Positions 4,375 to 60,948 of a stretch of DNA of 64,000 bases are shown here, in pieces. Under the pieces are notes generated by a model. The model did no database searches and had not been told where the DNA came from. It worked only from the letters and a program-made list of their open reading frames with translations. The stretch lies in NCBI GenBank assembly GCA_016195685.1, contig JACPZE010000003.1, positions 899-64,898 on the forward strand, given 5' to 3'. Origin of the DNA: Candidatus Gottesmanbacteria bacterium. GTDB lineage: Bacteria; Patescibacteriota; Microgenomatia; 2-02-FULL-39-11. Position numbers and translations under genes: made by a program. Position 1 is the stretch's first letter. The number at the start of each line of letters is the position of its first letter.

Positions 4375-5128
4375 TATTTTTTTGGCTCCTCCTTTTAAAT
4401 TTTATAATCAGCGGAACTACAATTGCCACAAGCAATATTAAAACACCTACCTGGCGAAAACTCAGACCATATAAGTATAGGTTATAAACTTTTAGGAATT
4501 CAAGTAGGAATATAATCAACGCAAGACCTATTCCGAAAATGGATGCGACCAACCCTTCGGGCAAAATATTTCTTTTAACCCGTTTGTAAATAAGATAAAG
4601 TATTAATGTAAGTATAGATAACAAAAATGCTTCATAAAGTTCTACAGGATGATGTTTTCCCGGTAACCCTATAATTTTTATTCCCAGAAAAAAGTTCGTT
4701 TCTCGACCAAATCCTGCACCACCTAGTTGTTCACCAAGTTTGGCAAGAATCAGGGCAAAACTGGAAGCAAGCGAAAAAAGATCCAGTAGCTTCCAAAAGT
4801 TTCTTTTTATTCTCCTGGCATACCAAAAAAGGAAAATAAATCCACCAAATAATCCGCCCACAAGGGATAAACCAGGAGTTTCCCTGACTACGATATATTT
4901 GAGAAAATTCAGTCCGAATTCATTAAAATGAAATAGGATAAACCCTAGTCTGCTAGCGATTAATGATGCTAAACTTGTATAAAGAAAAGCATCTAAGTAT
5001 TCCTCCTCGGCAAGTTCCTCTTTGGCATTTTTCCATACAATAAAAGTGGAAAAAAGAAATGCTAAAGAGAGAAAAAATCCGAATGCGTAAACATTAAATG
5101 ACCCGATGGTAAAAAGTACAGGAGACAT
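4358..5128 (-). CDS. lgt: prolipoprotein diacylglyceryl transferase
   Basis: polytopic membrane protein with Lgt signature region GRETNFF...HPVELYEAFL and conserved N-terminal FTIGSF..YAFG. Confidence 0.7.
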   Translation of the reverse strand: MSPVLFTIGSFNVYAFGFFLSLAFLFSTFIVWKNAKEELAEEEYLDAFLYTSLASLIASRLGFILFHFNEFGLNFLKYIVVRETPGLSLVGGLFGGFIFLFWYARRIKRNFWKLLDLFSLASSFALILAKLGEQLGGAGFGRETNFFLGIKIIGLPGKHHPVELYEAFLLSILTLILYLIYKRVKRNILPEGLVASIFGIGLALIIFLLEFLKVYNLYLYGLSFRQVGVLILLVAIVVPLIIKFKRRSQKNNENYT

Positions 5129-44831: not shown

Positions 44832-44868
44832 AAAAAATTAGGCGAGTAAGAATTTTCTTATTGCGAGC

Positions 44869-45156
44869 TTATTTATTTCCTCCTCCAAGTAATCCCTGCA
44901 AGCCTCCACTCATCTCAGTCAGCTTTTTGGCCGCAATTTCTTGGGATTTTTTGATAGCTTCGGAAAGCGCTTCTTTTACTTTCCAGTCATCCTGGCCATC
45001 TATCACCAGAGATTTTATTTTCTGGTCTCCGGTCATGACTACTTTCACACCATTTCTCTCCACCACCACTTCCTCGCCGGCTAACATCTGCTGCATTTTT
45101 ACCGCCTGGTCACGCATCGACTTCAGATCCCCAACGGCTTTAAACGGATTAAACAT
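44869..45156 (-). CDS. ybaB: nucleoid-associated protein YbaB/EbfC
   Basis: MFNPFKAVGDLKSMRDQAVKMQQ...GLQGLLGG typical YbaB; downstream of dnaX. Confidence 0.85.
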   Translation of the reverse strand: MFNPFKAVGDLKSMRDQAVKMQQMLAGEEVVVERNGVKVVMTGDQKIKSLVIDGQDDWKVKEALSEAIKKSQEIAAKKLTEMSGGLQGLLGGGNK

Positions 45157-52364: not shown

Positions 52365-52928
52365 TTATATCTCACTTAGCTCCTTCTCCTTATTCTCCCT
52401 CATCATGTCTATCTCTGCCATAAATTCATCTGTAAATGTCTGTATCTCCTTTTCCAGATGTTTTTTCTCATCCTCTCCTAATTCCTTAGCTTCAAATTTA
52501 TGCTTCAGTTGTACCATGGACTCATGCCTGACTTGTCTCACCATCACCCGTCCTCCTTCAACTTTAGCATGGGCTAGCTTTATGTATTCCTGGCGCCTAT
52601 CATCCGTAAGGGGCGGAATACTGATCCGAAGGATATTGCCATCGGAAGCGGCAGAATAACCTAAATTAGCCGTATTGATGCTACGCTCGATATCCCGAAT
52701 GACTGTCGGATCAAAGGGGGCGATGACTAGCATCCTCGGACCATCGGTTGTGATGGTGGCCATTTCTTTAAGTCTTAGATGTTGGGTATTATCGTAAGCA
52801 GCTATTACTAAATTCTCAATAAGGGCAGCAGTGGCCCGGCCTGTTCTTATGGTACCCAAGTCTTCGGATAGGACTTTCATGGCCTTGACCATTTTATCTT
52901 TTGTCGAAGCTAGAAACTGTTGATCCAT
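52365..52928 (-). CDS. frr: ribosome recycling factor
   Basis: RRF pattern ...DDRRQEYIKLAHAKVEGGRVMVRQVRHE. Confidence 0.9.
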   Translation of the reverse strand: MDQQFLASTKDKMVKAMKVLSEDLGTIRTGRATAALIENLVIAAYDNTQHLRLKEMATITTDGPRMLVIAPFDPTVIRDIERSINTANLGYSAASDGNILRISIPPLTDDRRQEYIKLAHAKVEGGRVMVRQVRHESMVQLKHKFEAKELGEDEKKHLEKEIQTFTDEFMAEIDMMRENKEKELSEI

Positions 52929-52977
52929 GTGTCATTAGGATAACAAGAAACAGTATGTAAAACAAGTAGAAATTATT

Positions 52978-53348
52978 TGTCATTGCGAGCGAAGCGAAGC
53001 AATCTCTATAATAAAATTAGTGAAAAAACAATATTTTGTTTATATTGCTACGAATACAACGAATCGTGTTCTTTATACAGGAGTCACTAATAACTTAATT
53101 AAAAGAAATTTCCAACATAAAAAACAGTTTATATCCAGTTTTACCTCAAAATATAAAATTAATAAACTCGTTTATTATGAAATATTCGATGATATCAATG
53201 AAGCAATTAAAAGAGAAAAACAAATTAAAGGAGGATCTCGTAAAAAGAAAATAGATTTAATAAGAAACCTGAATCCTGGTTTTATTGATTTATATGAAGA
53301 AATTATTAAGTAAAGATTGCTTCGTCGCTAACGCTCCTCGCAATGACA
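52978..53348 (+). mobile_element. compact GIY-YIG element bounded by imperfect terminal inverted repeats
   Basis: left end tgtcattgcgagcgaagcgaagcaatct (52978-53005); right end agattgcttcgtcgctaacgctcctcgcaatgaca (53314-53348); outer 12 nt and inner 11 nt are exact inverted complements. Confidence 0.5.
53020..53313 (+). CDS. small GIY-YIG nuclease-family protein (97 aa)
   Basis: GIY-YIG core YFVYIATNTTNRVLYTGVTNNLIKRNFQH and conserved downstream E/R (YYEIFDDINEAIKREKQIK). Confidence 0.7.
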   Translation: MKKQYFVYIATNTTNRVLYTGVTNNLIKRNFQHKKQFISSFTSKYKINKLVYYEIFDDINEAIKREKQIKGGSRKKKIDLIRNLNPGFIDLYEEIIK

Positions 53349-53373
53349 TAAATGAATTAGTTGAATTAGTTTA

Positions 53374-55563
53374 ATGTATACTTATATTATGAAGGAAGAA
53401 AAAGTAGTATTGGAGCTTCGGACTCCCAAAACAGCCGAGGAAACACCTGAACATATGCAGCAGGTTTTCTCCGCGCTTTTTTCCGGCGGACACATCCCCC
53501 ATTGGAAAAGGCTTTGGATAAAAGTACGCACCCTTTCTTTTGAAATCGCATCGTTTAACCAAAGCATACATTTCTATACCGTTATCCCTAGGCCTTTTAA
53601 GACCTTCATCGAAAGCCAGCTCACCAGCCAGTATCCCAAGATCCTTATATCCGAAACGCCGGATTACATGGCAAATATCACCAAAAACAGATTTTTAGCC
53701 ATAGGAAATCTGCAACAAGCCGCCCCATTTTATTACCCTATAAAAACTCATGCGGATTTTAAAGAAATTGATTCCATATCTTCTATTCTGGGTGTACTCT
53801 CCAAATTCAGCCCGGAGGAAAGCTGCGTCATACAGATGGTGATAGAACCTCCGCATTTCAACTGGCAAGGTATGATACAACGGATGGTAGACCGAGGCAT
53901 TCCCGATCCTACTACCACGGCACCCAACCGGACCAAATCATTCCCTCATGCAAGTTTGATCGAGCAGAAAGTCAAACAAAGTGGTTATCGTACCTACATC
54001 AGAATCATGGTAGGAGCAGAAGATAACAAAAAAGCCCTATCCCTTCTTTTTAATATCGCCGGATCGTATGGAGCCTTTGCCTTGGGTGAAGGCAATAGAC
54101 TTGTTCTTCGTCGTCCCAGGCTTTTTTGGAAAAAAGTCATCTACAATAGAATACTGAAGCGCGAAAAAAGCCATTATCCCAGACACCAGGTATTAAATAC
54201 AGGCGAACTGGCTACCATCTGGCATCCGCCCACGATGCTACTTGCTGGGATAAAAAATATCGTCTGGGGCAGATCACTCGTGGGAGAACCTCCCCAAAAT
54301 CTGCCTGTTGCCGCAAATATCACAGAAATTGAAAAAGGGGATATAAATTTCATCGCCCGGGCTGAATTTAAAAATACCCTCACCACTTTTGGTATAAAAA
54401 GACCGGACAGAAGAAAACACATTTACATAATAGGGAAAACCGGTACCGGTAAATCTACCATGATCGCCAATATGGCTATAAACGACATGAGGAATCGGGA
54501 AGGTCTAGCTGTCATAGACCCTCATGGAGACCTATCTGACATACTTTTAAATTATATTCCCTCATATAGGATAAACGATGTCATATATTTGGAACCTTTT
54601 GATGTGGAACATCCCTTTTGGATGAACCCGTTGGAAGTGAAAAATCCCATCCACAAAGAATTGGTCACCTCCGGAATCGTATCGATCTTTTCCAAGCTTT
54701 ATGCCAAATCCTGGGGTCCCAGGCTTGAGTATATACTGCGGAATGTCATCCTTACTCTTATGGATTATCCGGATGCCACACTGGTTATGGCTTTGGATCT
54801 TTTATCTGACCAGAATTTCCGCCAGGGAGTACTAAATAAAGTAGAAAATAAGATCCTGCAGAATTTTTGGCACAATGAATTTGACAAAATGCACCCCAGG
54901 CTTAAAAGCGAGGCTATAGCTCCAATTCAAAATAAAGTAGGCCAGTTTGTACAATCTCCCACTATACGTCAAATCATCGGACATCCTACATCTACCATAG
55001 ACCTGGAGGAAGTGATGAACCAGGGGAAAATACTGATACTGAATCTTGCACAGGGTAAATTGGGTGAAGACAACGCAGCGCTTTTGGGTGCCATGTTTAT
55101 CACCAAAATGCAATTGGCAGCCATGAACAGGGTAAATTTGCCGGAGGAACAGAGGCGTGATTTCTACCTTTATGTAGATGAGTTTCAAAACTTCGCTACC
55201 ACATCTTTTATAAAAATATTATCTGAGGCGCGGAAATACCGCCTTGATCTTATCATGGCCAACCAATACATCGGACAAGTGGAGGAAGAAGTGCAAAAAG
55301 CTATTTTTGGCAATGCCGGATCTCTTATTTCTTTTGTCATCGGCGCCCAGGATGCTAGTGCTCTGACTAAGGAATTCGGCCAGTGGTATAAAGAAGAAGA
55401 CCTTGTAAATTTGGGTTCTTATCAGATAATCATCAAACTGGCTATAGATAACCTGACTTCACTTCCATTTCACGCACTCACTTTGCCACTTCCTAAATCA
55501 AAGAATCAAAACCGCGATAAAGTCGTGCGCCTCTCCAAAGAAAGATACACTAAGAAGCCTTAG
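53374..55563 (+). CDS. FtsK/HerA/TraG-VirD4-superfamily P-loop ATPase (DUF87/T4CP-like), 729 aa
   Basis: Walker A IIGKTGTGKST followed by AVIDPHGDL; Walker B LYVDEFQNF; downstream RKYRLDLIMANQYIGQ arginine-finger/Q motif region; non-TM 340-aa N-terminal domain. Confidence 0.6.
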   Translation: MYTYIMKEEKVVLELRTPKTAEETPEHMQQVFSALFSGGHIPHWKRLWIKVRTLSFEIASFNQSIHFYTVIPRPFKTFIESQLTSQYPKILISETPDYMANITKNRFLAIGNLQQAAPFYYPIKTHADFKEIDSISSILGVLSKFSPEESCVIQMVIEPPHFNWQGMIQRMVDRGIPDPTTTAPNRTKSFPHASLIEQKVKQSGYRTYIRIMVGAEDNKKALSLLFNIAGSYGAFALGEGNRLVLRRPRLFWKKVIYNRILKREKSHYPRHQVLNTGELATIWHPPTMLLAGIKNIVWGRSLVGEPPQNLPVAANITEIEKGDINFIARAEFKNTLTTFGIKRPDRRKHIYIIGKTGTGKSTMIANMAINDMRNREGLAVIDPHGDLSDILLNYIPSYRINDVIYLEPFDVEHPFWMNPLEVKNPIHKELVTSGIVSIFSKLYAKSWGPRLEYILRNVILTLMDYPDATLVMALDLLSDQNFRQGVLNKVENKILQNFWHNEFDKMHPRLKSEAIAPIQNKVGQFVQSPTIRQIIGHPTSTIDLEEVMNQGKILILNLAQGKLGEDNAALLGAMFITKMQLAAMNRVNLPEEQRRDFYLYVDEFQNFATTSFIKILSEARKYRLDLIMANQYIGQVEEEVQKAIFGNAGSLISFVIGAQDASALTKEFGQWYKEEDLVNLGSYQIIIKLAIDNLTSLPFHALTLPLPKSKNQNRDKVVRLSKERYTKKP

Positions 55564-55647
55564 GCTATAAATACACATCCTTATACATGTTTTAATACAT
55601 ATCTCAATACTTGACAGAATATGTATTTTGTGATATGTTAGCTTTGT

Positions 55648-55902
55648 ATGGACACGATAATTATTCCCATAACGGATTTTTTAAGGAAAGCCGGAGAATA
55701 CGCGGATAGACTTCCTTCACTTGAGAAAATCATCATAACCAGAGGCGGAAGACCGTTTGCTGAATTAAAGGCATCTCCCCAGGAAAAAAATAGAAAACTC
55801 ATAGAACTTATAAAAAGTTTTAACGGTAAACTTTTTGAAAATGAAGAAGTATGGAAAGCAGTATATACCAGAAGAAATAGAAAAAAGCCCATTACAATAT
55901 AA
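55648..55902 (+). CDS. Phd/YefM-family antitoxin
   Basis: 84 aa; IIPITDFLRKAGEYADR...IIITRGGRPFAELKA typical Phd/YefM. Confidence 0.55.
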   Translation: MDTIIIPITDFLRKAGEYADRLPSLEKIIITRGGRPFAELKASPQEKNRKLIELIKSFNGKLFENEEVWKAVYTRRNRKKPITI

Positions 55903-56262
55903 ATGAATTTTTTAATTGACACCTCTATACTTATAGAAATGCTTAGGAAAAATAAAGATGTTTTGGATTTTCTAGCTAATCATCTGGAAGATAGGTTTCT
56001 CACAAGCAGTATATGTGAGGCAGAAATTTGGGAAGGAGTTTATAGAGAAAAACCGATTAATTTTGTAAAAAGAAAGAAAAATGTTGAAGTTTTATTGGAA
56101 TCCCTGACAGGGACCATTACTTTTGATTCAAATCAGGCACAGATTGCAGGACAAATAAGATCTTCCCTTTCCTTAAAGGGAGAATTGACGGGTGACCTGG
56201 ATATTTTGATAGCCGCATCTGCTGTAACAAACGATGCAACCCTATATTTAATTTACCCATAA
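55903..56262 (+). CDS. VapC-type PIN-domain toxin (C-terminus looks truncated)
   Basis: MNFLIDTSILIE PIN N-terminus; immediately follows antitoxin; ends ...TNDATLYLIYP without the usual terminal acidic motif. Confidence 0.6.
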   Translation: MNFLIDTSILIEMLRKNKDVLDFLANHLEDRFLTSSICEAEIWEGVYREKPINFVKRKKNVEVLLESLTGTITFDSNQAQIAGQIRSSLSLKGELTGDLDILIAASAVTNDATLYLIYP

Positions 56263-56290
56263 AAAAGAGGTATCAAAACCAATCCTTTTA

Positions 56291-56623
56291 TCACCTCGTC
56301 TGGTGAATGATGTCTACTCCTTCTTCTACATTTTTCACTTTATCACCAGGTGCTAAAAAACTTCTGCTAGGCCCAACGAGAATTTGTTTTTCATCTGATA
56401 TTCCGTATCCTATATCGCATATATTATTTGGGTCAGTACCAGGTAGATGAACCATTACATCCACGTGTAAAATACGCCCACTTGAAAGCTTCCCCGAAAA
56501 ACTACTATTGCCTGTAATTTGTCCATCATCGACGATAGGATTATTCTTTCCATGATCGACAAAAATTAATCGACCATGACAACGTGGTATACCAAAAGTA
56601 TATTTGATACCTTCTCTAAACAT
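56291..56623 (-). pseudogene. N-terminally truncated dCTP deaminase/dUTPase-family gene fragment
   Basis: 110 aa matching only the C-terminal two thirds of Dcd (SSGRILHVDVMVHLPGTDPNN...FLAPGDKV versus [23 protein letters not shown]...ALRPGMLIG). Confidence 0.4.
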
Positions 56624-56701
56624 ATTAAATATTATACTAAATCTATCCTATAGTTTCAACAAAACTTGACTTATACTATAGGTTATGATATAAATTGCAG
56701 T

Positions 56702-56800
56702 CTATGCGGTATCAACAGGCCGTTTTTATTGTGGACCAATTTTTTGTGAATATCACCTTTATAAAAGGCAAAGCTTCCCTTTTGCGGGAAGATTTTTGCT
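56702..56800 (+). ncRNA. candidate ~100-nt small RNA (promoter plus intrinsic terminator, no ORF)
   Basis: TTGACT(56666-56671)-17 nt-TATAAA then about 100 nt ending in hairpin cttccc-ttttgc-gggaag (56774-56791) followed by ATTTTTGCTGAATTTTG. Confidence 0.3.
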
Positions 56801-57116
56801 GAATTTTGTTGTAAGTTCCGGTCCTAAATTGTGGGTATTTGCACTCACAACCAAAAACTGAAACTTACGACTTCGGAGCAAACGCTTCGAATAGCACTTT
56901 AACAAGGGAAATAGTGAAATTTATACCTCTAAATTATCTGGTTGTAGAGCTTCACATGGCAGAAAAATCTTTTCTACCAACTGTAGCTTTACAATCGGAT
57001 GAAAAAGGGTAAATAATGTTTGGTAAATATAGTTAATATTTAAGGATAGCGCTGTTGTTATAGAAAACATAATCTCAGTGACAGAAGATCTAAATCCGAC
57101 GTCACAAGAGGTTAAA

Positions 57117-58007
57117 ATGTTTAAAAGCAAAAGCACGCGGATCGCGGTAATTCTCGCGATCATCATGTTCGTCACGACTTTCGCTTTTACCGCGAACGTC
57201 GCAAGCGCACAGGGTCCCACACCTACGAAAAGCGTTGGTAGCAACAACGTTAATCAGGACTGTTTCGACTTGAAAAGTCCGTCTGGACCCCGAACAAAAC
57301 CTGGGGGGAAAGATAGCGCCGGGAACACCTGCGTCGCTGGCTTGCTCTGGACTGACCCCCAAGGCCGGTCGCTCAACGTCCCATACAACGGATACGCACT
57401 CAGTGCATCTAGCACAACGACGGGGACGATTACGCCAGGTGTGTCACTCACGAACACGGCTCCCTCCGACAATCTGGCAGCACCAACGGGTTCGACAAGA
57501 CCGAAGTATAATGTGTGCACGTTCAACGAGGACGGCACAAAGTATACGGTCGAACCAGATGCAGCCCCGGCAGTGGTCCACGCGCCTAACGGTACAATCG
57601 TTACTTTGGCGTGCACTTGGGATGATTCTCGCGGGGCAGTACCGGATCGGTCGGAAAAAACAGCGCTCGAAGTACAAATCGAAACCTGGCGGAGTGTCCT
57701 CTGGACAGGGATCACGATGATCCTCTCCGTTGTGTTTGCGATTGGCGCGCTGGTAGCAGCTGGGTTCATCGCGGTAGCGATGGTGCATGGCGACTTGTTC
57801 CGATCGGTGCGTGACTTCTGCTCTTCATGCACATCCCTTTGGTGGGGGTGGCGGCGGAGCACCCGGTGGTGGAGAACACGCTGCGAAAGAAAACCACTAG
57901 AAGCAGGCTCCTCAATGAGTCGACTTCGCTGTACGAAAGGTACCAGAACGAAAGATAAGGGGCCGCCGGGGAGTGGAGAAGCTGTTTTGTGGACCAACAC
58001 AAAATAA
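57117..58007 (+). CDS. GC-rich (foreign-composition) secreted protein with C-terminal TM anchor
   Basis: signal peptide MFKSKSTRIAVILAIIMFVTTFAFTANVASAQ; Thr/Ser/Pro-rich ectodomain with Cys; TM helix ITMILSVVFAIGALVAAGFIAVAMV; third-codon positions mostly G/C, unlike every other gene. Confidence 0.55.
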   Translation: MFKSKSTRIAVILAIIMFVTTFAFTANVASAQGPTPTKSVGSNNVNQDCFDLKSPSGPRTKPGGKDSAGNTCVAGLLWTDPQGRSLNVPYNGYALSASSTTTGTITPGVSLTNTAPSDNLAAPTGSTRPKYNVCTFNEDGTKYTVEPDAAPAVVHAPNGTIVTLACTWDDSRGAVPDRSEKTALEVQIETWRSVLWTGITMILSVVFAIGALVAAGFIAVAMVHGDLFRSVRDFCSSCTSLWWGWRRSTRWWRTRCERKPLEAGSSMSRLRCTKGTRTKDKGPPGSGEAVLWTNTK

Positions 58008-58176
58008 ATGCGGTTCACCGCAGCTTCCTCCGCCTTCGGCGCGACATCACAACCAAACATCATCACTATTTCCCTTATCTTTCAAATCTTCAGAATTCTG
58101 GAAGTTTGGGAGATAGGACAGAACAATTTCTAATTACTGATTTTTAATTTCTAATAAATTTAGATTGGAAATTGGG

Positions 58177-58422
58177 TTAATTTTGGGGTACGATTTCGAG
58201 GCGTTCTTCTATAAGTTCAACTCTCTTCCGGAGATCGAGATACTCTTTGTCGAAAAAATCAGCGATTGTACTTATATCTTTACGGATTTTTGTATTATCT
58301 TTTTTTATCACCTTCACATCTGATTTTAAAGCATTCAAATCAGTTTTTATGGGATGAAGTTCTTCTTTAATAAATTTCATTAAAGTATTTCTAATAGATA
58401 GAAGATCAATTTTTGTCAACAT
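58177..58422 (-). CDS. small coiled-coil hypothetical protein (81 aa)
   Basis: ORF only; its promoter and first 11 codons are duplicated 580 bp away. Confidence 0.4.
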   Translation of the reverse strand: MLTKIDLLSIRNTLMKFIKEELHPIKTDLNALKSDVKVIKKDNTKIRKDISTIADFFDKEYLDLRKRVELIEERLEIVPQN

Positions 58423-58511
58423 GAAAAGATATTACCAAGTGAAAATTACGAAGTCAATTACTAATCAGAAGAATTGCATTTGACAAAAAAGTTAAAAGCA
58501 GGAAAATAGAG

Positions 58512-58949
58512 GTGCTTATGACCGATCATAGAATTGATGCGGATAGAATCGGTGAAGTAGCAGCTAAATACCGGTCGAAATTGGATTATCATCAAAGAGA
58601 CGTTGTTCAGAGTTTCGATATTTTTGTTTACAGAAATGCTTCTAGAATAATTAATAACCCCAGAGGTGACCAATCTCCGGTAGGTTTGAATTGGGCACAT
58701 CAATCTGAAGCAAAAACGACCGCAGATACATTAAGAGCAGATTTACAAAGAGCTCGAGTTTTTAAAAAAATTCCACTAAGTGCACTAATTTATTTTACCG
58801 CCGGAGATATAATCGCATACCAACAAGAAAATATAAGAGATCCCAGAAGAAGGGAATATCCCCATGTCATTTTGCAAAGTGTTGCTTTTGATGTAGTTGG
58901 AGTAATTTTTCCTAATAATGGATTGAGAAGAGATATACCGAATTGGTAA
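58512..58949 (+). CDS. hypothetical protein (145 aa) between duplicated segments
   Basis: ORF only; no domain recognised. Confidence 0.3.
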   Translation: MLMTDHRIDADRIGEVAAKYRSKLDYHQRDVVQSFDIFVYRNASRIINNPRGDQSPVGLNWAHQSEAKTTADTLRADLQRARVFKKIPLSALIYFTAGDIIAYQQENIRDPRRREYPHVILQSVAFDVVGVIFPNNGLRRDIPNW

Positions 58950-58974
58950 GGTGAATCCTTATTGTATTTCTGAT

Positions 58975-59038
58975 AGATAAAAGATCGATTTTTATCAGCA
59001 TGAGGAAATATTATCAAGTGAAAATTGTGAAGTCAATA
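58975..59038 (-). repeat. second copy of a ~65-nt promoter/5'-CDS segment (first copy 58397-58460)
   Basis: about 85 % identity; copy 2 encodes MLIKIDLLSIRNT then stops after 29 codons (copy 1 begins MLTKIDLLSIRNT). Confidence 0.6.
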
Positions 59039-59099
59039 AGTTTGTTAGAAAAAAAGAAGAAAAATTATTTCCCACCTAATTGATAGCGAATGAAGTAGA

Positions 59100-60080
59100 C
59101 TAGTGTCCCCTATTTATCCAGTAATTTTCATCCACTTTACCGTTTGCCAAATCATTCCAATAATCTTCCCCCATTAAATTTCCGCTTCTTTCTTTCATAC
59201 GCTTTTTCATGAGGGATATTTTTGCATATAATATGCTGTCAGATTGAGCAATATTCATAATATCCTGATACTTATTCATCAACCACCATGCAACAGTTGC
59301 CTGATCTTCATCAGCATCTACAGTTCCGTACCGTTCAGCAAATCCTTGCGGTCTTGAGTTAATATCAAAATATTTCCAGGTTCTTCTATCAAAAAGATTA
59401 AAAGCTGGCAGTGGCCACTGATATTCATATAACTCTGCACCTTCCGGACCATTCAAATTTACCCATTCAGCATCCCCGATTGGAAATTTTTGCTCCCTTT
59501 TGATTGCAAGATGATTTAACTCATGATGAAAACCCCACGGCTCACCATTATCATCCAGCTCTACAAAAAATGAGTTTTCGATCGGACATGCTTCTGAACG
59601 GGAAGAACATGCCTTTCCACCCCAATCGTTACCATCTTGCTTCAATTTCTTAATTAACCTAATTTCATCTAATTTAGTGTACCTTATATATGTGGGAGGA
59701 TATTTGGCCAGTTCCTTCTTAAGGCTATAAATCGCGTTTAATTCCTCACAGGCCGTAAGTTTTTGGCCTGAAAATTTTGCCCTTTTTTCTTCATCAGTCA
59801 AATCTCCAGAATAGATATATACACCATAACGTACCTTCAATTCTGCTTTCAATTGCGCAATAGCTTTATTTTGACTTTCACCATCTGCTGGACAACCTAA
59901 ATCTGAAAATGCAGCTGTTTGAACCCCAACCGTAGAAGAATTAATACTTGCATAAGTGGGAGTAGTGGTGGTAAAACCTCGTTGCGTTCCTGTACCAGCT
60001 AATTTTTGTAACGCGTCAATTGAATCTACTATAGGTTTCGCACCAAATACATATGCGGCGGCTTGTGCGCTATTACGCAA
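59100..60080 (-). CDS. HExxH-motif putative zinc metallopeptidase (C-terminal part of a split gene)
   Basis: FHHELNHLAI motif; begins at TTG directly after an in-frame stop; overlaps upstream ORF in another frame. Confidence 0.4.
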   Translation of the reverse strand: MRNSAQAAAYVFGAKPIVDSIDALQKLAGTGTQRGFTTTTPTYASINSSTVGVQTAAFSDLGCPADGESQNKAIAQLKAELKVRYGVYIYSGDLTDEEKRAKFSGQKLTACEELNAIYSLKKELAKYPPTYIRYTKLDEIRLIKKLKQDGNDWGGKACSSRSEACPIENSFFVELDDNGEPWGFHHELNHLAIKREQKFPIGDAEWVNLNGPEGAELYEYQWPLPAFNLFDRRTWKYFDINSRPQGFAERYGTVDADEDQATVAWWLMNKYQDIMNIAQSDSILYAKISLMKKRMKERSGNLMGEDYWNDLANGKVDENYWINRGH

Positions 60081-60406
60081 AAATCTCGTCTAGTAATAGC
60101 ATTTCCTGTAAATTGATGATTGACTAGTATAGCATGTTCATCCGATACTGCCACCGAATGAACCGTTTCTTTTTCTGGATTACCTATCACCCTGCGAATA
60201 AACCCCCTTCTTGGCAGTTGAGATGAGGCTGTTAAGATATTCTCTTTTGGAAATACAATACTTGATTGAGCTGTTTGGGCGGGACTGACCGGAACTAAAT
60301 GTGTCTCAGGTACAGGAATTAATGCCGTTGACTTTGGATCAGCTACAACAAAATCCGGCATTCTTTTTACCGATGTAAAAGTATCCATTTCCTGTCTGAT
60401 TGACAT
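60029..60406 (-). CDS. N-terminal part of the split HExxH gene (125 aa)
   Basis: 52-nt out-of-frame overlap with 59100..60080 around a T5 homopolymer. Confidence 0.35.
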   Translation of the reverse strand: MSIRQEMDTFTSVKRMPDFVVADPKSTALIPVPETHLVPVSPAQTAQSSIVFPKENILTASSQLPRRGFIRRVIGNPEKETVHSVAVSDEHAILVNHQFTGNAITRRDFCVIAHKPPHMYLVRNL

Positions 60407-60489
60407 AACTATAGGATATTATAGACTAAAAACCGTGCAGGTTCAAGTTTCTATAGGGATTTAAATTATTTAGTATTCTAGAGGAATAT

Positions 60490-60948
60490 TTACTTTTCTC
60501 CAAGCTGGAAGCGGATGAAGCGAGCTACGGTGATATTTTCTCCAAGTTTACCAATCACTTGCTTTACTAATCTTTCAATTGTCAATCCCGGATCACGGAT
60601 ATATTCTTGGGCAAGAAGTGCTTTCACATCTTTCGGATTCATAGAGGCTATTTGAAGACAAAGTTCGTGGGCGAGATTTTTAAAATCATCGGTTCGGGCG
60701 ACAAAATCTGTTTCACAAAGTAGTTCTACCAATACTCCCACTTTCCCCCCGGGATGGACATAACTGTCTACAATACCAGCTTTGGTCTCTCGGCCTACTT
60801 TTTTCTCCGATTTCTCTATCCCCCATTTGGCTAAAAGTGCTTCAGCCTTTTTCTCATCTCCTTTGGTTTCTTCCAAAGCGCGCCTGCAATCCATGATACC
60901 GGCGCCTGTTTTTTCCCGGAGTTTTTTGATTTGAGCAATTGTGGACAT
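60490..60948 (-). CDS. tsf: elongation factor Ts (short form)
   Basis: N-terminal UBA-like IAQIKKLREKTGAGIMDCRRALEETKGD; 152 aa. Confidence 0.85.
   Translation of the reverse strand: MSTIAQIKKLREKTGAGIMDCRRALEETKGDEKKAEALLAKWGIEKSEKKVGRETKAGIVDSYVHPGGKVGVLVELLCETDFVARTDDFKNLAHELCLQIASMNPKDVKALLAQEYIRDPGLTIERLVKQVIGKLGENITVARFIRFQLGEK

Follow-up and report, generated by a model that had tools for sequence, protein, structure and literature searches.

A GIY-YIG nuclease gene between inverted hairpin repeats, probably an Ssn-type module, with signs of recent lateral transfer in a Candidatus Gottesmanbacteria lineage

A cassette of about 0.4 kb, composed of a gene for a single-domain GIY-YIG nuclease and one inverted hairpin repeat on either side, was identified between frr and an ATPase gene in 64,000 nucleotides (nt) of DNA from a Candidatus Gottesmanbacteria bacterium (GenBank assembly GCA_016195685.1, contig JACPZE010000003.1, positions 899 to 64,898). 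This whole stretch is called the window here. We consider it very likely that the cassette is an Ssn-type module, that is, a gene for a GIY-YIG nuclease acting on single-stranded DNA (ssDNA) that is flanked by inverted copies of the motif recognized by its own enzyme. There is also a strong probability that the cassette behaves as a laterally transferred unit, selfish or semi-domesticated, that entered the frr-ATPase region of this Gottesmanbacteria lineage recently. The pairing of an Ssn nuclease with hairpin repeats is a kind of system that is already known; what is new here is an uncatalogued class of motif and unusually direct evidence of lateral movement. Ssn nucleases were reportedly first described in 2025.

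Ssn proteins correspond to CDD entry cd10448 (GIY-YIG_unchar_3) and are single-domain GIY-YIG enzymes of about 94 amino acids (aa); SsnA of N. meningitidis (NMV_0044) has 94 aa (Chenal et al., Nat Commun 2025; PMC11893778). These enzymes bind and cut ssDNA only, on one strand and just upstream of an oriented hairpin repeat; the characterized members showed no binding or cutting of double-stranded DNA (dsDNA), and Neisseria SsnA did not bind RNA (PMC11893778). The hairpin repeat is named NTS in Neisseria (CGTCATTCCCGCGMAVGCGGGAATCYRG) and SRM in general, and it typically flanks its own ssn gene (PMC11893778). The effect of the system in Neisseria is to restrict NTS-carrying ssDNA during transformation (PMC11893778). 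The authors of that study likened the NTS-ssnA-NTS architecture to that of an insertion sequence (IS) and hypothesized that the element is or was mobile (PMC11893778).

Results

The cassette and its nuclease

The open reading frame (ORF) for the nuclease is intact, lies at 53020-53313 on the plus strand, and encodes 97 aa between a GTG start and a TAA stop; the protein begins MKKQYFVYIATNTTNRVLYTGVTNNL. It is bracketed by inverted copies of TGTCATTGCGAG-[variable]-GAAGCAATCT. The left hairpin repeat (52978-53005, full sequence TGTCATTGCGAGCGAAGCGAAGCAATCT) is in sense orientation on the plus strand and reads TGTCATTGCGAG-CGAAGC-GAAGCAATCT. The right hairpin repeat (53314-53348, full sequence AGATTGCTTCGTCGCTAACGCTCCTCGCAATGACA) has its sense on the minus strand, which reads TGTCATTGCGAG-GAGCGTTAGCGAC-GAAGCAATCT. 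The outer 12 nt and the inner 11 nt of the two arms are perfectly complementary, but the centers differ (6 vs 13 nt). The stop codon (53311-53313) abuts the right arm, with the repeat beginning at the very next base. The left repeat is laid out as T-GTC, a basal stem ATTGC, an internal loop GA(G), a mini-hairpin GCGAAGC, GAA, a basal stem GCAAT, and C-T; it is an SRM-like motif and presumably serves as the top-strand site that the encoded nuclease recognizes. The presence of oriented hairpin repeats both 5' and 3' of the gene is an Ssn trait. A preliminary description of this DNA had already noted a compact 97-aa GIY-YIG unit flanked by inverted repeats, and the ORF, the arms, and the stop abutting the right repeat were all confirmed. 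Its view of the arms as terminal repeats stood only in part: the inverted flanking is real, but the arms are structured hairpins without a target-site duplication and not classic terminal inverted repeats (TIRs). Motifs of this type have been shown to act as sites of recognition or cleavage for Ssn nucleases (PMC11893778).

The GC content of the window is 0.376. The outer 12-mer occurs at two places only in the 64 kb, compared to 0.13 expected at up to 1 mismatch, and no further motif copies or second cassette were found in the window beyond the two gene-flanking repeats. A putative third copy at 44857-44894 required 2+2 substitutions and was judged to be due to chance.

The protein matched the Pfam GIY-YIG profile PF01541 (E=1.3e-14), with residues 4-77 aligned to profile positions 1-76 of 78. 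A tblastn search of PLSDB, a 7.3-Gb database, matched the protein to an N. gonorrhoeae chromosome with 40.9% identity and 96% coverage (E=8e-16). Pairwise alignment to this gonococcal ssnA ortholog gave 41% identity over 93 aa with no gaps (E=2e-25). The subject was named an ssnA ortholog because it is a 94-aa ORF and is surrounded by 10 NTS copies within 2.7 kb. PLSDB contains gonococcal chromosomes labeled as plasmids, among them a 2.17-Mb N. gonorrhoeae record (L106 among our locus numbers; NZ_CP119140.1) that is nearly without gene annotation, with 12 features in total. The published criterion for Ssn homology is E<1e-10 over >75% of the length compared to Neisseria SsnA (PMC11893778), and the window protein lies within it.

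Y8, Y19, G21, R29, H33, E66, and N85 were invariant in an alignment of 20 sequences. When 30 sequences were aligned, Y19, G21, R29, E66, and N85 were invariant, and Y8 and H33 were conserved in at least 90% of the sequences. The window protein has the conserved catalytic residues of Ssn enzymes (two Tyr, Arg, His, the metal-binding Glu, and Asn). The AlphaFold2 (AF2) model (pLDDT 93.6) showed the GIY-YIG fold in a single compact alpha/beta domain; with 97 aa, the protein also agrees with Ssn enzymes in being a single domain of about 94-100 aa without an accessory domain. Solved structures nearest to the model were 1ZG2 (Foldseek E=5.6e-4) and Slx1, with TM about 0.57-0.60. On the Pfam match, the SsnA identity, the alignment, and the AF2 model, the gene was annotated as an Ssn-like single-domain GIY-YIG nuclease. 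A sequence search of the Protein Data Bank (PDB) gave no match to the window protein, and no Ssn structure was present in the PDB copy searched. There was likewise no matching model in NCBIfam, no match in Rfam at the gathering threshold and at E<=1, and no match in the INPHARED phage collection. One homolog (P0012) has been annotated with an N-terminal extension (...CHCEEERRSNL...) that comes from in-frame translation of the upstream repeat; repeat-derived peptide tails of this sort probably contaminate many database protein predictions.

The repeat motif in other bacteria

A protein scan of one genome per species identified at least 515 relatives, and the best 80 loci (54-72% aa identity) were used for motif counts. 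These loci span more than 15 phyla and include Patescibacteria, Chloroflexota, Cyanobacteria, Bacteroidota, Planctomycetota, Nitrospirota, Bacillota, Actinomycetota, Elusimicrobiota, Omnitrophota, and several classes of Proteobacteria. The motif was searched for in 770 kb as GTCATTGCGAG (up to 2 substitutions), 0-70 nt of any sequence, and GAAGCAATC (up to 2 substitutions), with reversed sequences as the control. There were 421 copies, compared to 7 in the reversed sequences. A sense copy was present within 150 nt upstream of the gene at 75 of the 80 loci (median gap to the start, 29 nt), and an antisense copy was present within 150 nt downstream at 66 (median gap from the stop, 8 nt). Both sides of the gene were flanked at 63 loci and at least one side at 78. 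Orientation was strongly polarized, with 80 sense vs 32 antisense copies upstream and 77 antisense vs 31 sense copies downstream. The start codon follows the repeat by only 3-10 nt in most phyla. More than 500 nt separated 107 of the 421 copies from any ssn gene; solo copies therefore exist in many hosts. The search for further copies raised in the preliminary description found none elsewhere in the window and 421 at the homologous loci.

The consensus of the motif is Y-GTC-ATTGC-GAG-[variable]-GAA-GCAAT-C-YC. Compensatory Watson-Crick changes were found at three pairs of the basal stem ATTGC/GCAAT (23, 20, and 11 copies). The variable centers folded better than shuffled sequences (mean z = -1.45) and often formed a clean hairpin, with GCGAAGC present in 122 copies. 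The frame GTCATT...AATC-Y is common to the window repeat and Neisseria NTS, the former reading Y-GTCATT...AATC-YC and the latter C-GTCATT...GGGAATC-YRG. A literature search with the repeat sequence itself returned unrelated primers only.

Among IMG/VR viral contigs there were 24 distant relatives only, and 2 of those loci carry the window motif class; it therefore appears that phages are not the main vehicle. At 39-48% identity, the more distant relatives in viral contigs were without the window motif class, which fits each Ssn clade having its own site. A 56%-identical homolog on Planktothrix agardhii plasmid p1 (L107; NZ_LR882964.1, 18847-19131) is situated between an MmeI-type restriction-modification gene and DISARM drmA, a defense-island context, and is without the window repeat class.

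Half-copies comprising only the 5' part of the repeat (YGTCATTGCGAG and about 8-12 nt more) were observed as orphans in L057, L025, and L007 and at about 30 other places in L002-L081. They precede a full copy on their own strand by 19-27 nt, and some of them form tandem arrays with a 20-nt period. Their total was 80, compared to 7 in the control. These half-copies may be a footprint of repeat cutting, repair, or propagation.

Empty sites and lateral transfer

Orthologous sites were found through frr homologs and their contigs. A metagenome scan with frr yielded three close relatives only, one of them ending 106 nt from frr. Empty frr-ATPase sites, for which the preliminary description had proposed looking in related strains, were present in L099, L100, and L102-L105. 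The two genes are divergent in these relatives and 55-72 nt apart, the intergenic region is well conserved, and both the GIY-YIG gene and the repeat are missing. Identities to the window were 85% for frr and 85% for the ATPase in L100, 81% and 87-91% in L102-L104, and 81% and 83% in L105; frr of L099 was 87% identical. Between shared anchors, TTAG(A/G)ATAACA at the frr side and GTATACT at the ATPase side, the window has 429 nt (52947-53375) vs about 25 nt in the empty sites. This inserted or replaced patch, which was annotated without a strand, comprises the cassette together with 31 nt to its left and 27 nt to its right.

The only other filled frr-ATPase site, L001, belongs to a separate and more basal frr clade (frr 79% and ATPase 74% identical to the window), and the empty lineages branch between the two filled lineages in the frr tree. 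The cassette protein of L001 is 91% identical to that of the window, with synonymous differences at 15.7% of conserved codons and a third-position identity of 85%. For frr and the ATPase gene, synonymous differences were 49-50%, threefold more than in the cassette gene, and third-position identity was 45-47%. Sliding identity between L001 and the window reached a plateau of about 0.92 within 52954-53313, compared to about 0.69 in both flanking genes. Because of the empty sites, the placement in the frr tree, the low synonymous divergence, and the identity plateau, we regard this pattern as the signature of a recent lateral transfer, in which the cassette reached the same intergenic site together with about 30 nt of flanking sequence at either end, and not of vertical inheritance. 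The selfish or mobile behavior proposed in the preliminary description is borne out by the clean empty sites in close relatives and by a cassette far younger than its flanks relative to L001; a single-copy gene fixed in synteny across relatives is not what was observed.

No target-site duplication was found at the window, where the flanks read ...GAAATTATT ahead of TGTCA on the left and TAAATGAAT after TGACA on the right, with no direct repeat. Positions beyond -1 and +2 were without conservation across the 421 copies. Two paralogous cassettes in one Gastranaerophilales metagenome-assembled genome also fit movement of the cassette, as their similarity sets in precisely at the left repeat's outer end.

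Other arrangements of the repeat and the site were seen in relatives. L001 has a solo repeat at 1639-1664, with proS on one side and a tRNA-binding-domain gene on the other. Three more copies follow its GIY-YIG gene at 4939-5060: one is forward, one is a reverse variant whose 7-bp distal stem is perfect, and one is reverse and truncated. These three rearranged copies, compared to one in the window, indicate that the repeats turn over much faster than the gene. In the closest relative, L098 (frr 91% identical), a complete empty-type intergenic sequence is kept upstream of frr as far as GTATACTAG (1-91 of the contig). It is followed by sequence resembling the left flank of the window patch (TTAGGATAA...TAGAAATTATT), and the contig ends 2 nt past the would-be start of the left repeat, which may point to a differently placed insertion of the same donor segment. 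In a more distant relative (L083/L084, 1617-3500; frr 72%), two other genes occupy the frr-ATPase interval, one for a membrane protein rich in Thr and Pro and one for a membrane protein of 375 aa; this clade has therefore gained and lost genes at the interval recurrently.

The flanking region

To the left of the cassette, frr was located at 52365-52928 on the minus strand (RRF, E=7e-49). On the right, the gene for a TrwB/VirD4-like ATPase with DUF8128 and TrwB-like coupling-protein domains occupies 53374/53389-55563 on the plus strand. Its start is most likely the ATG at 53389 (MKEEKVV...), as in all relatives; the ATG farther upstream, at 53374, came from the mechanical ORF call and is probably not the start. 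A weak candidate promoter, TTGCGA-18 nt-TATAAT, was noted at 52983-53012 on the plus strand (consensus scan 10/12). Its -35 hexamer falls within the left repeat, and its -10 hexamer follows the repeat immediately, 8 nt ahead of the GTG. The count of promoter-like sites in the region was not above that of shuffled sequences. TATAAT-like hexamers also follow the repeat in some close loci (L003 and L019), but not in most other phyla.

The preliminary description had also suggested that the cassette may mark the boundary of an island. This idea did not hold, as the ATPase gene is the conserved neighbor of frr in all close relatives and the actual local insertion lies farther right, at 55564-60489. 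This segment of about 4.9 kb extends from the 3' end of the ATPase gene to tsf (60490-60948), where L105 has 21 nt, and it is probably a real local island. It contains a PIN/VapC-like ORF (55903-56262), a small ORF upstream of it (55648-55902), and several ORFs without a Pfam match. A GC-rich stretch at 57000-58000 (0.53 vs 0.38) carries an ORF with a signal-peptide-like sequence (57078-58007).

Discussion

By homology with the characterized Neisseria and Wolbachia enzymes, the nuclease of the window would ignore duplex DNA and RNA and would bind its motif when the DNA is single-stranded, as in replication, transformation, or conjugative transfer. In the folded motif, a single-stranded YGTC would precede a basal stem of 5 bp (ATTGC/GCAAT), which would lead through the conserved GAG/GAA internal loop to a distal hairpin that varies. 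A cut is predicted a few nt 5' of YGTC on the sense strand of the motif only. Since the two copies are inverted, the predicted cuts would be on different strands, one at each outer edge of the cassette, and this geometry invites a possible role for the nuclease in the transfer of its own cassette. Policing of incoming ssDNA may be another role of the enzyme.

Several observations weigh against reading the cassette as an Ssn-type module on the move. With two gene-flanking copies only in the 64 kb, there is no sign of a target-site network across the genome such as Neisseria has. Such self-flanking sites alone, in a small-genome host of the Candidate Phyla Radiation (CPR), fit a selfish or minimally domesticated cassette better than they fit a regulatory network spanning the genome, and the former reading is the more economical. 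Compared to the empty sites, the divergent segment runs about 30 nt past each repeat; the repeats are therefore not demonstrably the recombination endpoints at the frr-ATPase locus. Each window hairpin, when folded alone as DNA, was not more stable than shuffled sequences (z = +0.45 to +0.88), because the window copies have minimal centers (GCGAAGC and GCGTTAGC). Structural support for the hairpins is comparative only. The published SRM search sequence, HGTCWYN(0-2)YYVSBRHN(0-5)WNVSBRGN(0-2)RNCYNB, which is a search heuristic and not a definition of the family (PMC11893778), was not matched by the window copies, with 2 substitutions needed on the left and 4 on the right. None of the 421 family copies matched it either, whereas the same script recovered 9 of 10 gonococcal NTS copies. 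The window repeat and its relatives, therefore, make up an uncatalogued motif class.

Rival scenarios were also weighed. The unit could be a classical mini-transposon, cut-and-paste or copy-paste, with the arms serving as TIRs that are bound as duplex by a GIY-YIG transposase. The presence/absence polymorphism at the frr-ATPase site would agree with a transposon, as would the similarity of the paralogs from the outer end of the left repeat onward and the IS-like architecture remarked on by the Ssn authors (PMC11893778). We nevertheless find it improbable, as both a target-site duplication and a conserved flanking target are missing, the inserted patch reaches about 30 nt beyond either repeat, and the arm centers differ and vary freely between loci, with only the boxes and their pairing conserved. 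Moreover, several near-identical copies are a trait of IS and of miniature inverted-repeat transposable elements (MITEs), yet the 64-kb window holds no second cassette or solo copy, and the characterized members of the family neither bind nor cut dsDNA (PMC11893778). This last point also bears on a free-standing homing-endonuclease gene, which would cut the empty frr-ATPase allele and have the cassette copied in by repair with co-conversion. Homing would explain how two lineages that are separated from each other came to have the same site filled by a much younger cassette. An element that is younger than its flanks and sporadically present at a single site is what homing predicts, and the shared flank of about 30 nt on each side resembles co-conversion. 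However, the protein is a 97-aa catalytic core with no DNA-binding domain, the 80 homologous loci are in unrelated contexts with no common target, the conserved motif is inside the element and not at the empty site, and family members do not cleave duplex DNA (PMC11893778); homing is, therefore, very improbable.

Alternatively, the nuclease gene could be resident in the host and its palindromes could be signals for expression, the upstream one being a promoter, operator, or 5' untranslated region hairpin and the downstream one a REP-like stabilizer of the mRNA 3' end or a terminator. The promoter-like site does overlap the left copy, the copies hug the start and stop of the gene, and the complement of a DNA hairpin is also a hairpin in RNA. 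Against this, no T-run follows the right copy and no terminator-like site was found, and the short distance from repeat to start codon in most phyla leaves no room for a -10 hexamer. About a quarter of the copies are far from any ssn gene, and the conservation of the boxes across more than 15 phyla exceeds what promoters show. The empty sites and the young cassette oppose a resident gene, and Neisseria SsnA does not bind RNA (PMC11893778). An explanation by expression signals thus appears quite improbable.

A bolder scenario is that the hairpin-ssn-hairpin cassette is an autonomous mobile element that travels by way of ssDNA, with a bare GIY-YIG nuclease as its mobility enzyme. We hold this to be possible but unlikely. 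Nicks 5' of each inverted hairpin, on opposite strands, would free or mark the edges of the cassette, and host replication or repair would complete the process; the arrays of 5' half-copies, with their register of about 20 nt, and the rearranged repeat cluster of L001 would then be its footprints. If true, such transposition would follow a so far undescribed chemistry that has converged on those of IS200/IS605 and RAYT/REPIN.

Taken as a laterally transferred Ssn-type module, the cassette has consequences for how such systems are surveyed. A large cross-phylum Ssn clade (at least 515 matches in species-representative genomes) uses a hairpin class that the SRM pattern misses entirely; surveys that rely on this pattern, therefore, undercount enzyme-target pairs, which is relevant to the mining of Ssn enzymes as programmable ssDNA cutters. 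The filled and empty alleles of one intergenic site also provide a natural experiment on the hypothesis that the NTS-ssnA-NTS element is mobile (PMC11893778).

Comparison with known systems

The closest solved folds to the AF2 model are those of UPF0213/YhbQ-type proteins (B. halodurans BH0048, PDB 1ZG2) and the nuclease domain of Slx1, but their sequences are only 18-24% identical to the window protein. We know of no UPF0213/YhbQ-type or Slx1 protein that is paired with flanking hairpin repeats. GIY-YIG homing endonucleases of the I-TevI and SegA-G type share the GIY-YIG core, the presence/absence polymorphism, and an element younger than its flanks. Unlike the bare 97-aa core of the window, they possess a DNA-binding domain as well as a long linker, act on the empty allele by cutting dsDNA, and are without flanking hairpins.

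In RAYT/REP (REPIN) systems, genes for IS200/IS605-like HUH Y1 transposases are flanked by inverted REP hairpins. The resemblance to the cassette lies in a single-copy nuclease gene bracketed by inverted hairpins that its product recognizes as ssDNA, in repeats that are dispersed or clustered elsewhere in the genome, and in a status between selfish and domesticated. The two differ in that one enzyme is an HUH tyrosine transesterase and the other a GIY-YIG hydrolytic nuclease, unrelated in fold and chemistry. To our knowledge, there is no evidence that Ssn can rejoin DNA. The analogy of Ssn to RAYT/REP was also drawn by the authors who described the Neisseria system (PMC11893778).

Compared to the Ssn/NTS-SRM system of N. 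meningitidis SsnA, the window class differs in the design of its repeat, which has the stem ATTGC/GCAAT, a GAG/GAA internal loop, and a variable distal hairpin, whereas NTS has a continuous ATTCCCGC/GCGGGAAT stem. Copies of the window class are consistently inverted around their gene, in contrast to the mixed orientations at the gonococcal gene, where the copy after the stop is in sense. The host is a member of the CPR (Patescibacteria), and the 64-kb window shows no visible amplification. Alike in both systems are a single-domain GIY-YIG enzyme of about 95 aa, a gene flanked on both sides by an oriented hairpin repeat, a repeat with the frame 5' YGTCATT and 3' AATCY whose basal stem begins ATT/AAT, and solo copies dispersed elsewhere in many host genomes.

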